DNA from: Candidatus Dadabacteria bacterium
Lineage (GTDB): Bacteria > Desulfobacterota_D > UBA1144 > Nemesobacterales > CSP1-2
Assembly (NCBI GenBank): GCA_040289575.1
Contig: PSLL01000019.1
Coordinates: 17,354 to 41,126, forward strand
Length of the DNA stretch: 23,773 nucleotides
Direction: 5' to 3'
Shown here: piece by piece, positions 4,379 through 23,773 of the stretch
Position numbering within the stretch: the stretch's first letter is position 1
Layout of the letters: the number at the start of each line of letters is the position of its first letter
Position numbers and translations under genes: made by a program
Notes under the pieces: model-generated
Seen by the model: only the letters and a program-made list of their open reading frames with translations
Database searches by the model: none
Told to the model about the DNA's origin: nothing

Positions 4379-4915
4379 CTATTTATCCTGAACCTCTTTC
4401 TTAAGAACACCAATAAACGGGAGGCTCCTATACCTCTGATTGTAGTCCATCCCATATCCAACCACAAACTCATCGGGTATTTCAAATCCCAGATAATCAA
4501 TTCGGATATCCACAATCCGGCGCGCCTTTTTATCCAAAAGGGCGCATACGCGAATGTCAGAAGGTCTTCTCGCCTTTAGTGTCTTGAGTATGTAGTTAAG
4601 GGTCAATCCCGTATCAATAATATCCTCCACTAAGATTACATGCTTACCTTCTATGCTCTCATCTAAATCCTTCAGTATCCTTACCACCCCGGTCTGAGAC
4701 TGCCCCGAGTAGCTGGATATAGAGAGGAAATCAAGCGTAATCGGAATAGAGATATTCCTTATTAGGTCGCATAGAAACACAATAGCCCCTCTAAGGACGG
4801 CAACGATCACAAGGTCTTTTCCATTGTAATCACGTGATATCTCTTCTCCCAATTCTCTAATCCGCCTCTTTATTTGATCTTCTGTGATTAGAACCCTCTC
4901 TATACCCTCTTGCAT
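4379..4915 (-). CDS. hpt: Hypoxanthine phosphoribosyltransferase
   Basis: VLRGA, SY loop, PRPP-binding VEDIIDTGLTL, LLDK and FVVGYGMDYNQRYRSLP. SD GGAGAGAGG. Confidence 0.97.
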   Translation of the reverse strand: MQEGIERVLITEDQIKRRIRELGEEISRDYNGKDLVIVAVLRGAIVFLCDLIRNISIPITLDFLSISSYSGQSQTGVVRILKDLDESIEGKHVILVEDIIDTGLTLNYILKTLKARRPSDIRVCALLDKKARRIVDIRIDYLGFEIPDEFVVGYGMDYNQRYRSLPFIGVLKKEVQDK

Positions 4916-5039
4916 CTGCCTCTCTCCAAATAAGCCCAGGATTATTTTAATCTGCCTTATTGTATATGGCTATATAATTGATATGATCGATTAAAATTCA
5001 CTGAAAACAAACGACTTTTTCTCATCAATAAATCCCCCC

Positions 5040-5068
5040 TTGACATAAACTAGAGTTTGTGATATCAA
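5040..5068 (+). promoter_or_regulatory. Sigma70-type promoter for the putative ncRNA
   Basis: Perfect TTGACA (5040-5045), 17-nt spacer, then TG-n-TATCAA (-10 at 5063-5068). Predicted start about 5075-5076, coinciding with the 5' end of the long stem. No + strand gene follows. Confidence 0.65.
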
Positions 5069-5075
5069 TATTAAT

Positions 5076-5207
5076 GGGTCCCAAGAGGTTAAAGGCGGAT
5101 TTGAAAACCAAAACTTAGAGTACGGAAAGAAGAGACCGAAAGGTCAAATCAAGTAGGGAAGAAGGCAGGGGTTTTCAGAAAAGCCAAGTCACTTGGGGCC
5201 TTTTTTT
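5076..5207 (+). ncRNA. Putative rod-shaped non-coding RNA (~130 nt), family not recognised
   Basis: Nested helices: GGUCCCAAG 5077-5085/CUUGGGGCC 5192-5200; GGUU 5087-5090/AGUC 5187-5190; GGC 5094-5096/GCC 5183-5185; UUGAAAACC 5101-5109/GGUUUUCAG 5170-5178; CUU/AAG; UAC/GUA; apical GACC-GAAA-GGUC 5134-5145 (GNRA loop). U7 tract at 5201-5207 and an upstream promoter. Confidence 0.7.
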
Positions 5208-6097
5208 ATACCAAATCTCTCTAATAACCTCTTATAATCCTTTCCATAGAATATCCTTATGTTCACATCCGGATAAAGCTCTTTTAACATTCTAACCTTA
5301 CGATTCTTCTTTGTTACGAGGTTTTGCTTGAGCGTAGTAAGTTCAATATAAATGTCCAACTCAGGGAGATAAAAATCCGGTGTGAACTTTTCTATTGCAT
5401 TACCCTCATTATCCCACTTAATAGGAAAGCTCCTGGGCTCATACTCCCACTTAATTCGGTAAAAGTCCAAGACACTCGCAAAATCCCTTTCACTCGAATG
5501 GGCAAAAGAGGGTATTGATAAGTGCCTGCATTCCTCACCCGAATTAGGGGAGAAATCCGACTTGTCTAAACCGGCTTTCAATTTTTCAAGCGCCCTCCAT
5601 GTCAATCCGGCCTTTGCGGAAATGCCCTTTGTTTCAGCCGCTTTTAAAACTAAATCTACGGCGAAATCCGTATCCATATTGTCCACTTTGATCTGCAGGT
5701 CATATAAGTCGTTGCTCAACCTTTGCTCTCCATAAAGCCCCTTAATGAACCTTACGTAATTCCCCTCCTTTTTTAATTTACGGTATCCTTTTTGAGAGGC
5801 ACGGATTTTTATATGGAGAGTCCCAGGGAAATCACGAAAGAGAATCTCTCCTCCGAGATTAAAAATTATCACATTATCTTTGAGAGCTTGTTCAACTATT
5901 AGCCTTTTAATAAGTTCAGGTGGAAATTCTCCACGACCTATTCGATCGGCAATCTCCTCATTCAACGCCTGCGGGCCGTTTAACTTATCGATGATGAGAG
6001 TACTATCTACTAAAACAAAGCCCAATCTTTGGCAAATCTTTATAGCTACTTCGAGACCCAGACCGTCCAATTGTTCAGAGATAGTAATAATAGCCAT
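5189..6097 (-). CDS. Fusion of a degenerate cytidylate-kinase-like domain and a C-terminal PD-(D/E)xK-like domain
   Basis: N-terminal IITISEQLDGLG...LGFVLVD...LHIKI...LYDLQIKVD follows the cytidylate kinase-like family pattern. From aa 198, FAHSSE...WEYEP...FTPDFYLPELDIYIELTT resembles restriction-endonuclease-fold (T7 endonuclease I/TnsA-like) motifs. Confidence 0.8.
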   Translation of the reverse strand: MAIITISEQLDGLGLEVAIKICQRLGFVLVDSTLIIDKLNGPQALNEEIADRIGRGEFPPELIKRLIVEQALKDNVIIFNLGGEILFRDFPGTLHIKIRASQKGYRKLKKEGNYVRFIKGLYGEQRLSNDLYDLQIKVDNMDTDFAVDLVLKAAETKGISAKAGLTWRALEKLKAGLDKSDFSPNSGEECRHLSIPSFAHSSERDFASVLDFYRIKWEYEPRSFPIKWDNEGNAIEKFTPDFYLPELDIYIELTTLKQNLVTKKNRKVRMLKELYPDVNIRIFYGKDYKRLLERFGIKKGPK

Positions 6098-22595: not shown

Positions 22596-23720
22596 ATGAG
22601 AAAGACACCACTTTATGACATCCATTCTTCACAAGGAGCCGTCTTTGGCAACTTCTCCGGTTGGCTAATGCCTAAAAGCTACGGGGCTCCATTGGAAGAA
22701 TACGCATGTGTGAGAAATAGAGTGGGCATCGCCGATCTATCACATCGCGGGAAGTTGCGTCTGAGCGGAAAGGAGCACATAAAATTTCTTCAAGGAATGG
22801 TGACAAACGATGTAAACAGGCTGAAAGAAGGAGAGGGTCTATACGCCGCCCTTCTCACACCAAAAGGAAGGATGATCTCGGATATGAGGTTATACCGCCA
22901 GGGCGAATCCCTACTTCTTGATTTAGAGCCGGGTCTTAATGAAAAGGTAAGAAACCTCTTGGCTAGATACAAATTATCATATAAGGCAAATATAGAAGAT
23001 GTAACTGAGAGTCTCTGTCTAATTTCGATTCATGGCCCAAATTCCGGAAGTCTCATTGAGAAAGTCCTGAACAGAGAGATTCCAGGGCTAAAAGAATATG
23101 AATTTCTGATAAAAGAGATAGACGGATCTCAAGTGATGATAGTAAGGGCAAACCGTACAGGAGAAGACGGCTACGATATATTCATCTCAACCGATGGGGT
23201 CAAAACAGTATGGGAATCCTTAGTCGGAAATGGAAGGGAGTTCGGATTAAGACCGGTCGGTCTCGATGCCATGGAGATTCTGCGAATCGAGGCTGCGATT
23301 CCCAGATATGGCATAGATATGGACGACAATACAATCCCGCTTGAGGCGGGGCTTGAGAATGCCATAAGCTATGAGAAGGGATGCTACGTGGGTCAGGAAG
23401 TGATTGCAAGGATTAAATGGAGGGGACATGTAAATTGGTGCCTTGCTGGATTTGAAATTGAAGGCGAGGGACTACCCGCTAGAGACGATAAGATTAGACA
23501 TGGTGAAAGGGAAATTGGGTATATAACGAGCAGCACTTTTTCCCCCATACTGAGAAAGATAATAGCCCTTGGGTACATAAGAAGGGAATTTATAGAGCCG
23601 GGAACAAGGGTCATAGTAAATATAGGCGGCGAGGACAGATCCACAGAGGTTGTAAAAAGGCCCTTTTACCAAAAGATGGTGGGCGGTACTGGATTTGAAC
23701 CAGTGACTTCCACCGTGTGA
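22596..23720 (+). CDS. Folate-binding YgfZ/GcvT-family protein
   Basis: GcvT-like KTPLY, DLSHRG, FLQGMVTND and LRIEAAIP, plus the YgfZ/Iba57 signature KGCYVGQE. Confidence 0.9.
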   Translation: MRKTPLYDIHSSQGAVFGNFSGWLMPKSYGAPLEEYACVRNRVGIADLSHRGKLRLSGKEHIKFLQGMVTNDVNRLKEGEGLYAALLTPKGRMISDMRLYRQGESLLLDLEPGLNEKVRNLLARYKLSYKANIEDVTESLCLISIHGPNSGSLIEKVLNREIPGLKEYEFLIKEIDGSQVMIVRANRTGEDGYDIFISTDGVKTVWESLVGNGREFGLRPVGLDAMEILRIEAAIPRYGIDMDDNTIPLEAGLENAISYEKGCYVGQEVIARIKWRGHVNWCLAGFEIEGEGLPARDDKIRHGEREIGYITSSTFSPILRKIIALGYIRREFIEPGTRVIVNIGGEDRSTEVVKRPFYQKMVGGTGFEPVTSTV

Positions 23721-23750
23721 GGATGGCACTCTACCGCTGAGTTAACGCCC
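23677..23750 (-). tRNA. tRNA-Val(CAC), acceptor stem 1 nt short on the 5' side
   Basis: GGGCGTTAACTCAGCGGTAGAGTGCCATCCTCACACGGTGGAAGTCACTGGTTCAAATCCAGTACCGCCCACCA: D arm ACTC/GAGT, anticodon stem CCATC/GGTGG with loop CT-CAC-AC, T loop TTCAAAT, encoded CCA. Confidence 0.9.
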
Positions 23751-23773
23751 CGTGTGTTGCGCCGTCTTCTCTA

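Follow-up and report, generated by a model that had tools for sequence, protein, structure and literature searches.

Structured bacterial RNAs and their protein partners

To our knowledge, only a handful of structured RNAs that are widespread in bacteria have a protein partner of their own, namely SRP RNA, tmRNA, 6S RNA, Y RNA and RNase P, each of which opened a field. 6S RNA is a housekeeping RNA. Y RNAs are stable RNAs of ~100-200 nt that have a conserved basal stem formed by the 5' and 3' ends, with a small irregularity in it, and a variable upper domain. The Y RNA gene adjoins the gene of its protein partner, and several paralogues may be present per genome.

The window analyzed here is a 23,773-nt stretch of contig PSLL01000019.1 of a Candidatus Dadabacteria bacterium. 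It contains hpt (positions 4379-4915, minus strand), which encodes a 178-aa protein assigned to Pribosyltran by Pfam, and the KN gene (5189-6097, minus strand), which encodes a 302-aa protein with a P-loop-kinase-like N-domain and a PD-(D/E)xK-fold C-domain (residues ~192-300). A predicted RNA of ~132 nt (5076-5207, plus strand) lies between them, antisense to both, as the initial annotation had described. The comparisons below support positions 5076-5207 as a standalone structured RNA gene of an uncatalogued family; hpt is the third member of a conserved cassette that also contains KN. Within this cassette the RNA may act as a protein-binding partner (regulator, decoy or scaffold) of KN, the reading we favour, with a probability of about 45%.

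Predicted promoter, fold and terminator of the RNA

The predicted promoter (5040-5068, plus strand) consists of a -35 element TTGACA (5040-5045), a 17-nt spacer and a -10 element TATCAA (5063-5068), which reads as an extended -10 by virtue of a TG at 5060-5061. A consensus scanner did not list it because its rule demands a T at the last -10 position, which TATCAA lacks. The 5' end (A5073-G5076) is placed from the promoter and the 3' end is placed in the U tract.

The plus strand of 5076-5207 folds with -40.6 kcal/mol (z = -4.04), a stability reached by 0 of 200 shuffles; the minus strand folds with -30.8 kcal/mol (z = -3.20; 1 of 200 shuffles equally stable). The minimum free energy (MFE) structure of the plus strand is a rod with eight nested helices. 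Of the 48 unpaired bases before the U tail, 47 are purines (32 A and 15 G), one is C and none is U, and the internal loops are small, with 1-6 nt per side in the MFE and consensus structures. The 5' arm of helix P1, GGGUCCCAAG (5076-5085), pairs with 5192-5201. A conserved A (5086) stands opposite A5191 in a 1x1 A-A mismatch between P1 and P2, and the 5' arm of P2, GGUU (5087-5090), pairs with AGUC (5187-5190); the family consensus of this helix is GGUY/GGUC. The 5' arm of the middle helix, UUUGAAAACC (5100-5109), pairs with 5170-5179. The apical hairpin GACC-GAAA-GGUC (5134-5145), identified by the fold and by comparative pairing, carries a GNRA loop, which is the sole hairpin loop of the MFE structure. 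The 3' arm of P1, CUUGGGGCCU, and the U7 tract (5201-5207) together span 5192-5207; they end the RNA in the manner of an intrinsic terminator, within the region of the stop codon of the convergent KN gene. The consensus scanner listed a plus-strand terminator-like site at 5184-5196, followed by GGCCTTTTTT. The RNA is probably made and stable.

The initial annotation had described, from the window alone, a TTGACA-17-TATCAA promoter with a start at about G5076 where a hairpin begins, at least seven nested helices, almost purely purine internal loops, a GAAA cap and a following U7. All of these were recovered: P1 starts at 5076, and the promoter and U-run recur in related copies.

Conservation and covariation of the RNA family

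The RNA was found by blastn at 11 places in 6 of 41 relatives. A covariance model (CM R1), which matches the window RNA with 134.4 bits, detected it in 11 of 15 genomes of the family and in 13 of 101 genomes of the order; one 4-bp helix was mis-indexed in CM R1, and the pair counts below were taken from a corrected computation. Both methods found a single copy in the window genome, and other genomes carry up to seven. All 21 related copies examined have a -35/-10-like promoter, with a -35-like hexamer at the same distance (16 TTGACA, 3 TTGACT and 2 TTGATA) that does not vary among the 11 copies aligned first. In all 21 the closing stem is retained and covaries, and a U-run comes after it.

The whole rod covaries in 11 Dadabacteria-type copies, in which 38 pairs are paired in 93.3% of cells and 8 pairs are doubly changed; 0 of 500 shuffles reached the covariation score. 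Together with promoter and terminator, the structure is kept, with covariation, in the 21 related copies and in further phyla. Comparative pairing gives strong support to P1 and P2, to the 10-bp middle helix and to the apical hairpin, in which 97.6%, 97.3% and 95.5% of the cells pair (97.3% for the middle helix in the 11 copies), whereas three short inner helices are weakly supported (70-86% paired). In short forms of another genus, the apical hairpin is replaced, as judged by eye, by GAG-GAGA-CUC. The single-stranded purine tracts are conserved. The length in Dadabacteria is 115-135 nt.

The basal stem extends across several phyla. Among 36 sequences (multi-phylum alignment A7), its 14 pairs are paired in 98.2% of cells and 9 of them show compensatory changes, a result reached by 0 of 500 shuffles. 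At the mismatch, the 5' base is A in 32 of these sequences and the 3' base is A in all 36, and the wobble pair of P2 is G-U in 31 and A-U in 5. The invariant basal module thus consists of P1, the A-A mismatch and a 4-bp helix with a G-U wobble.

On this comparative evidence the RNA is a real gene family rather than a chance structure. That the hairpin arose by chance, or is a mobile repeat of the REPIN or MITE type, is scarcely credible: the several copies in some genomes would fit a repeat, but the window genome has only one, the copies are ~75-90% alike with compensatory changes, each has a promoter and a terminator, and the position of the RNA is syntenic across phyla. A guide-RNA function was considered and rejected, since differences between the paralogues of one genome are spread uniformly over the RNA, with no hypervariable segment.

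Comparison with known RNA families

No Rfam 15 family was found for the RNA when the whole window was searched with the gathering threshold and positions 4900-5300 with E<=10. Only tRNAs and chance-level matches were obtained in these searches, at 12 distant loci (gathering threshold) and at the loci of five relatives (E<=1). In the literature covered, which lay outside subscription journals, no description of the RNA or of the KN-hpt-RNA cassette was found. SRP RNA is excluded because the SRP RNA of this genome is located elsewhere (G000:C1:2362-2458, 62.1 bits); none was found in the window. The initial annotation had likewise set SRP aside and regarded the family as unrecognized.

In its paired ends the RNA is like Y, 6S and SRP RNAs. 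With 6S RNA the window RNA shares a rod shape, a strong sigma-70-type promoter, probable abundance and proposed protein binding. It differs from 6S RNA in being shorter, multi-copy and patchily distributed, in having no large central bubble in either the MFE or the consensus structures, and in coexisting with canonical 6S RNA, which was found above cut-off at a separate place in 3 of 5 further carriers. The 6S model (RF00013) matched nothing in the window region with either the gathering threshold or E<=10, and nothing at E<=1 in the five relatives. The same model finds nothing in the window genome, a blank that would leave room for an atypical 6S-like RNA binding RNA polymerase, though 9 of 14 control genomes likewise have a 6S RNA that it fails to detect. 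Such an identity, which the initial annotation had offered as an option, is very improbable despite the rod, paired ends and promoter, given up to seven copies per genome, a length of 115-135 nt and absence from most relatives of an RNA that should be housekeeping. Of the initial interpretation, the standalone uncatalogued RNA stands and the 6S-like option is unsupported, whereas a trans-acting role or one as decoy or scaffold is putative.

The likeness to Y RNA with Ro60/Rsr (YrlA/Yrn1) lies in the basal stem of the ends with its irregularity, the position of the gene beside a protein gene and the existence of paralogues. The irregularity is an A-A mismatch next to a G-U-containing helix here and a bulged C in Y RNA; the neighbouring gene encodes a kinase-like/PD-(D/E)xK-fold protein, and no tRNA-like domain was seen. 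The Y_RNA and YrlA models of Rfam gave no match in the window or the five relatives. TROVE (PF05731) was not found in the window genome, which is 95.35% complete, whereas the Deinococcus and Bacteroides controls were matched.

CsrB and RsmX/Y/Z are also multi-copy, purine-rich structured sRNAs, which set the free level of one protein. Unlike them, the window RNA has no repeated GGA hairpin loops, and one paralogue of its family is physically linked to a candidate partner gene; CsrA (PF02599) was not found in the window genome. The locus shares with type III toxin-antitoxin systems (ToxI/ToxN) an RNA gene beside a gene for a nuclease-like protein and a proposed direct binding. However, the RNA is convergent with KN or lies beyond hpt, rather than upstream on the same strand; KN was not found in viral contigs, and its translation is coupled to that of a housekeeping gene. 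No tandem repeats were found in 5040-5207.

The KN protein

The N-domain of KN is PF13189-like with a degenerate P-loop, and the GSGGR motif is degenerate in Dadabacteria. PF13189 (Cytidylate_kin2) scores 27.9 bits on the window protein against a cut-off of 28, and relatives of KN carry PF13189. The structures 3hdt (Z 15.1) and 3fdi (Z 14.3) match the N-domain, and both were also among the PDB profile matches of KN.

The C-domain has a restriction-endonuclease-like fold according to its model (pLDDT 86.8), Foldseek and profile searches. The top Foldseek matches are T7 endonuclease I (E 1.5e-3, probability 0.99), Bax1, R2 RLE and Vsr, and the KN sequence profile matches T7 endonuclease I (3cae) with E 0.003. 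No family of its own was found for this domain in Pfam or NCBIfam. PADLOC gave only weak PD-(D/E)xK matches (best E 1.3e-4), and the ESM Atlas gave only unannotated clusters, the nearest named cluster being Phage_endo_I. The domain is basic (pI 9.4) and 60-78% identical across phyla, with an invariant helix KQxLVTKKNRK and invariant D of TPDF and E of IEL. KN therefore looks like a nucleic-acid binder. A role as a TilS replacement was rejected because TilS is present elsewhere in the genome.

PD-(D/E)xK-like folds bind RNA in RAP and FASTK-type domains, according to two papers (PMC5449608, PMC8190603). The C-domain of KN shares this fold and has structural neighbours among Toxoplasma gondii mitoribosomal proteins, the best with Z 8.3 and an rmsd of 2.6 A over 79 residues and further ones with Foldseek E 0.03-0.14. 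Its nearest fold is T7 endonuclease I, and Pfam RAP gave no match on KN at E<=0.01. The likeness to RAP is only a lead because the structural scores are borderline.

Three acidic residues of the C-domain align to the metal ligands of T7 endonuclease I. The catalytic Lys of that enzyme aligns to an invariant Thr of KN (ELTT), with an invariant K three residues on, and the nuclease activity of KN is therefore uncertain. These residues bear on a reading in which the RNA is a substrate that KN processes or cleaves, so that the gene pair encodes an enzyme and its substrate. The acidic residues speak for it, and co-occurrence and linkage of RNA and KN would fit it equally well, but the Thr at the canonical Lys position, the lack of any processing site marked in the sequences and the fact that promoter and terminator already set the RNA ends make it improbable.

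No relatives of KN were found in 2.9 million viral contigs. A phage collection gave one weak T7-endonuclease-I-like match, and plasmid records contained KN only as a C-domain fused to Hpt, on the megaplasmid of Thermomicrobium roseum. On these searches the KN-hpt-RNA module is judged to be neither mobile nor viral.

Linkage of the RNA to KN and hpt

The genetic coupling of the RNA to KN and hpt across phyla had been missed in the initial annotation. The basal stem CCAAG-A-GGUY/GGUC-A-CUUGG occurs within 2 kb of KN in 62 of 80 loci. The stem-bearing KN-hpt loci are labelled Dadabacteria, Acidobacteria, Methylomirabilota, Latescibacterota, Nitrospirae, Syntrophobacteraceae and Halanaerobiales, and the carriers of the RNA-KN-hpt cassette bear at least six phylum labels. 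The RNA and KN are present in the identical 13 of 101 genomes of the order, and a second, unrelated order (n=96) contains 30 genomes with both, 1 with KN only, 4 with RNA only and 61 with neither; these counts are not phylogenetically independent. The four genomes with RNA and without full-length KN are all MAGs whose completeness is not stated. Three KN-less genera of the family have an orthologous hpt (64-72% identity) in other contexts, with neither KN nor RNA.

The arrangement varies. Among the 21 Dadabacteria-type copies, 13 lie between hpt and KN and 8 elsewhere. The RNA is convergent with KN in 26 loci; the distance between its 3' arm and the stop of KN is -6 to +48 nt in 22 of these and 69-316 nt in 4. 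In 16 loci of Syntrophobacteraceae it follows hpt on the same strand, and in 11 of Halanaerobiales/Bacillota it is convergent with hpt. Since position and strand are rearranged among lineages, simple inherited synteny fails to predict the linkage to KN-hpt.

The convergent loci suggest a cis-acting antisense or terminator element, in which the hairpin with its U/A tracts ends KN transcription and the antisense RNA controls read-through into hpt. In the window the last 19 nt of the RNA overlap the end of the KN gene, which would suit this, as would the closeness of the stem to the KN stop in those loci. Such an element is quite improbable all the same: the 8 Dadabacteria-type copies outside the cassette and the majority of those in other genomes lie a long way from KN, the RNA of Syntrophobacteraceae is co-directional and follows hpt, and a terminator requires neither a strong promoter nor a covarying rod of 130-300 nt.

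KN-hpt also occurs without the RNA. No RNA was detected in 15 KN-hpt loci of the Bryobacterales/Solibacter type, even with the filters of the R2 search off, or by a scan for promoter, stem and terminator, and R2 found no match genome-wide in 5 of 5 such genomes. The C-domain of these RNA-less KN proteins is conserved to the same degree (63.7% mean) as that of groups with the RNA, so the RNA is not the strongest constraint on KN, unless a diverged form was missed. Most RNA paralogues show no linkage to KN, and the genes around them are unrelated. These points speak against a partnership of RNA and KN, as do the four genomes with RNA and without full-length KN, the T. roseum fusion with no RNA match nearby, the non-independence of the co-occurrence counts and the uncertain nuclease activity.

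These observations bear on a family of trans-acting sRNAs whose purine loops would base-pair with pyrimidine-rich mRNA without binding KN, and which would stand beside KN-hpt only through inherited synteny or co-regulation. In its favour, the RNA gene has a promoter and a terminator of its own, a genome can contain several paralogues at unlinked places, single-stranded purine tracts are conserved, and some KN-hpt loci are RNA-less. We nevertheless hold it rather unlikely: the part most conserved across phyla is a paired basal module and no single-stranded seed, covariation extends over the entire rod (with compensatory changes at 20 of 36 pairs in Syntrophobacteraceae), and the KN-hpt linkage persists despite the rearrangements.

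The neighbour that stays the same throughout is hpt, of which the window genome holds no other close copy. KN is followed by a Pribosyltran gene in 18 of 18 RNA-less loci, and such a gene was found in 9 of 12 downstream open reading frames scanned from other phyla; the KN and hpt reading frames overlap or abut in several lineages, and in T. roseum the KN C-domain is fused to Hpt. These associations, together with the RNA of Halanaerobiales, which abuts hpt and not KN, could mean that the RNA acts on Hpt or purine salvage, either by sensing purines or nucleotides or by binding Hpt, with KN in the role of an adaptor. That is unlikely, however, as hpt is universal and vertically inherited whereas the RNA follows the presence of KN, as no RNA match was found near the T. 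roseum fusion, and as no aptamer-like conserved junction was identified in the RNA.

Proposed function of the cassette

If the RNA is a partner of KN, then KN would recognize its basal module, probably through the basic and extremely conserved PD-(D/E)xK-fold C-domain. Binding may inhibit, activate or localize KN, with Hpt possibly taking part. The unlinked paralogues, of which a genome may hold up to seven, would determine how much KN is free or would direct it, and titration of this kind would resemble that by multi-copy protein-titrating sRNAs. Binding of the RNA to KN via the 20-nt basal module is a directly testable hypothesis.

A broader and more tentative proposal is a new bacterial ribonucleoprotein, in which purine-looped rods dock via the basal module to a PD-(D/E)xK-fold protein that is operon-coupled to Hpt and, in one lineage, fused to it. 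If true, this would be an RNA-protein system in at least six phyla in which a structured RNA, a nuclease-fold protein and purine salvage are linked, with a standing comparable to that of Ro-Y RNA or 6S-RNA polymerase. The cassette also offers a handle on the function of ~4,000 uncharacterized proteins encoded upstream of hpt. The surroundings of hpt in many uncultured lineages contain an unannotated RNA gene, one that annotation pipelines overlook.

Structure of the RNA locus

A rod-shaped RNA is predicted on the + strand at 5076-5207, between hpt (4379-4915, - strand) and the gene of a 302-aa protein, KN (5189-6097, - strand). As initially noted, both neighbours are antisense to the RNA, the 3' arm of which covers the last 19 nt of KN. 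The initial annotation proposed an independently transcribed RNA at 5040-5207, and the sequence features that it described were borne out. A -35 hexamer (TTGACA, 5040-5045) is followed after a 17-nt spacer by a -10 hexamer (TATCAA, 5063-5068) preceded by TG at 5060-5061. The hairpin starts at G5076, has the tip GACC-GAAA-GGUC at 5134-5145 and ends in a T7 tract at 5201-5207. A terminator-like site was detected at the RNA 3' end on the + strand by a consensus scanner. The promoter is absent from the consensus-scanner list because TATCAA misses the final T demanded by the rule.

Folding of the + strand (5076-5207) gave -40.6 kcal/mol; shuffled sequences averaged -28.0 (z -4.04), and 0/200 were equally stable. 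The - strand reached only -30.8 kcal/mol. The 48 unpaired bases of the + strand minimum free energy structure comprise 32 A, 15 G, 1 C and 0 U. A transcript starting here would probably be stable. In the window copy, an AUG at 5074 opens a 14-codon frame (5074-5118, +); other copies read AAGCG there, so the frame is unconserved and probably meaningless.

The Dadabacteria-type RNA family

Blastn with the rod RNA found 11 places in 6/41 related genomes, and a covariance model of the Dadabacteria-type RNA (R1) matched 11/15 genomes of the family and 13/101 genomes of the order. With the window's genome excluded, the RNA is present in 10/14 genomes of that family, in 2/2 of a second family and in 0/84 of six others, at 1-5 copies per carrier. 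Each of the 21 copies is preceded by a -35-like hexamer (16 TTGACA, 3 TTGACT, 2 TTGATA) correctly spaced from a TATAAT-like box and by an A/T-rich tract upstream, and its closing stem is followed by a U-run. Their length ranges from ~115 nt (apical GAG-GAGA-CUC) to ~170 nt (branched tips).

The fold is also upheld by covariation among relatives. R1 includes one mis-indexed short helix, and pair counts were taken from a corrected structure, which in 11 sequences has 38 pairs, 93.3% of cells paired and double changes at 8 pairs. The covariation score was equalled by 0/500 shuffles, and slid controls dropped to 53-56% paired. Comparative support is strong for the basal helices P1 and P2, the 10-bp middle helix and the apical hairpin, and weak for three short inner helices.

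Thirteen of the 21 copies sit between hpt and KN, convergent with KN, and eight lie in unrelated contexts. A same-genus MAG (G002) contains 4-5 copies on contigs C13, C283, C378 and C123, two at contig ends; these could be genuine paralogues or reflect mixed strains in this 410-contig bin. In another genome (G010; L015/L007, 1822-2892), an unlinked copy and a PDDEXK_1 nuclease gene (357 aa) are divergently oriented, which may be a coincidence or a second nuclease association.

Linkage of the RNA to KN and hpt

The linkage of the RNA to KN and hpt was overlooked in the initial annotation and is established here. At E<=1e-3, 5,125 relatives of KN were found, and KN is encoded in 523 places in a set of one genome per species (185,579 species). 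The best 80 of these 523 loci carry the depositor labels Dadabacteria, Acidobacteria, Methylomirabilota, Latescibacterota, Nitrospirae, Syntrophobacteraceae/'delta proteobacterium' and Halanaerobiales/Bacillota; most compared genomes are MAGs, and a few labels look mis-binned. The RNA lies within 2 kb of KN in 62/80 loci. It was identified by a strict pattern with complementarity in 42 loci, by R1 only in 5, by a covariance model of the basal stem (R2, filters off) in 3 and by eye in 1 (L069), and 11 loci hold a ~300-nt Halanaerobiales/Bacillota version (GGCUCCAAG...CGUUGGAGCC-U7). It was not found within 2 kb in 15 Bryobacterales/Solibacter-type loci and in L100 and L102; L113 is cut by a contig end. 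Diverged members may escape R2, which covers the basal stem alone.

R1 matches beside KN in other lineages are weak and consistently placed. By eye and alignment, the distant RNAs have in common a promoter of the TTGACA type, the segment YCCCAAG-A-GGUY on the 5' side and, on the 3' side, RGGUC-A-CUUGGGR with a U-run behind it. Across 36 sequences, 98.2% of cells in the 14 basal pairs are paired, with compensatory changes at 9 pairs (68 cells); this covariation was reached by 0/500 shuffles, and slid controls were 56-57% paired. The 3' A of the basal mismatch is invariant (36/36), the 5' A near-invariant (32/36), and one G-U wobble is retained in 31/36 sequences. The Syntrophobacteraceae consensus (21 sequences) is a nested rod with purine-rich internal loops and one side hairpin; compensatory changes occur in 20 of its 36 pairs.

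Downstream of KN, a Pribosyltran (hpt-like) gene recurs in Acidobacteria, Syntrophobacteraceae, Halanaerobiales, Bacillota, Methylomirabilota and Nitrospirae, and the two frames often overlap or abut; 18/18 loci without detected RNA have this gene as well. In 26 loci the RNA lies between KN and hpt in antisense orientation, its stem being -6 to +48 nt from the stop codon of KN in 22 and 69-316 nt away in 4. In 16 Syntrophobacteraceae loci it is co-directional with hpt and past it, and in Halanaerobiales it converges on hpt. A cis antisense or terminator element would be consistent with the overlap with KN in the window; the co-directional loci and the copies in unrelated contexts point away from it. 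In a Latescibacterota-labelled MAG (L077, 3233-4081), an IS1595-family transposase gene occupies the expected hpt place downstream of KN and the RNA.

Co-occurrence of the RNA and KN

KN and the RNA are present in exactly the same 13/101 genomes of the order, and KN in 13/120 genomes of the phylum. Within the family, hpt is present in 15/15 genomes and is inherited vertically, and the window's hpt is the sole close one in its genome. Three genera of this family have neither KN nor the RNA and keep an orthologous hpt (64-72% identity) with other neighbours; in a fourth such genome hpt lies at a contig start, and the absence may be an assembly artefact. The RNA might alternatively be Hpt- or purine-linked, as the recurrent Pribosyltran gene would suggest; the genera that keep hpt without the RNA speak for a tie to KN. 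In one relative without KN or RNA (G007; L153, 764-2458), hpt adjoins a gene with a GmrSD-type restriction endonuclease N-domain.

The second set comprised 96 genomes of the order around a complete, Syntrophobacter-like MAG. Full-length KN occurs in 31/96 genomes (two as partial matches) and the RNA (R2, E<=1e-4) in 34/96. Both are present in 30 genomes, KN only in 1 (partial KN), RNA only in 4 and neither in 61; these counts are not independent events, kinship within the set not being given, and the computed Fisher values overstate the association. Genomes carry up to 7 copies, and the extra ones have unrelated neighbours, as might be the case in a base-pairing sRNA family, a less likely reading. 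The paralogues diverge evenly along their length, and a guide-like variable segment is therefore ruled out. PF13189-only paralogues, which lack the nuclease-fold domain, are expanded in this order (G178-G208; up to 12 profile matches per genome).

Comparison with known RNAs

The sole match of Rfam 15 in the whole window is a tRNA gene (23680-23751, - strand, 54.8 bits). A search over 4900-5300 at E<=10 gave no meaningful match, and no Rfam family matches the distant forms beside KN, in keeping with the unrecognised family first proposed. The SRP RNA of the window's genome sits on another contig, which rules out that identity. A 6S-like RNA, one of the roles initially suggested besides a decoy or scaffold, would be compatible with this genome (95% complete), where the Rfam 6S model finds nothing; the same model fails in 9/14 control genomes. 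This option lost ground, as canonical 6S over the Rfam cut-off is found elsewhere in 3/5 other carrier genomes and the rod RNA is multi-copy, patchy and without a central bubble.

A Y RNA (no model match; TROVE protein not found in the window's genome), a Csr/Rsm-type RNA (CsrA not found there; GGA hairpin loops absent) and a type III antitoxin array (tandem repeat absent) were rejected. So was a mobile hairpin repeat, given the single copy in this genome and the diverged, covarying copies with their own promoters. Searches of phage, viral and plasmid collections argue against a phage- or plasmid-borne module. Stable structured RNAs linked to an adjacent protein gene are known as a general kind; no published description of this family or of the KN-hpt-RNA cassette was found in the literature searched, and the RNA family, basal module and KN-hpt association appear undescribed so far.

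Domains of KN and proposed role of the RNA

The N-domain of KN is P-loop-kinase-like (PF13189, 27.9 bits against a cut-off of 28; structural matches 3hdt, Z 15.1, and 3fdi, Z 14.3). The C-domain (~192-300) is 60-78% identical to the window's in all groups, the N-domain 23-58%, and alignment thus marks the C-domain as the constrained part. It has 3,991 relatives, is basic (pI 9.4) and is covered by no Pfam or NCBIfam family. Modelling predicts a PD-(D/E)xK fold. The C-domain modelled alone (pLDDT 86.8) is nearest to T7 endonuclease I (E 1.5e-3), Bax1, R2 RLE, Vsr and T. gondii mitoribosomal proteins, none at E<=0.001; the full-length model gave a single C-domain match (9g6k_Li, Z 8.3, rmsd 2.6 A over 79 residues). 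RNA-binding endonuclease-like folds are known, as in RAP/FASTK (PMC5449608, PMC8190603); the resemblance is a lead and not a claim of membership.

A second architecture, a PC4-like N-domain (PF02229; 5a4n-like) with the C-domain (~200 aa), occurs in Nitrospiraceae-labelled records (P0127, P0133, P0165 and others), and one such gene (L122, 1650-2321) is likewise adjoined by antisense RNA and hpt. In Thermomicrobium roseum (L144, NC_011961.1, 2950-3951), the annotated 333-aa hpt CDS is the C-domain fused to the Hpt N-terminus; the first ~115 aa share 65% identity with the KN C-domain, and the RNA family was not detected within 3 kb.

The reading we favour, at slightly under even odds (about 0.45), is that the RNA is a partner of KN. 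KN would bind it through the basal module (P1, the A-A mismatch and a 4-bp helix with the G-U wobble), and RNA paralogues would tune or direct KN. The RNA could also be a KN substrate: the acidic residues aligned to the T7 endonuclease I metal ligands are invariant, as a nuclease would require. Against this, an invariant Thr takes the place of the catalytic Lys; an invariant Lys follows three residues later, in the KQxLVTKKNRK helix. The strongest facts against the favoured reading are that Bryobacterales KN-hpt loci lack detectable RNA, that four genomes of the second order hold the RNA without full-length KN, and that the T. roseum fusion has no RNA detected nearby. Taken together, they mean that KN may be constrained mainly by Hpt or some other universal ligand, the RNA being accessory. 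Genome-wide, 0/5 Bryobacterales genomes match the RNA, and their C-domain is equally conserved.
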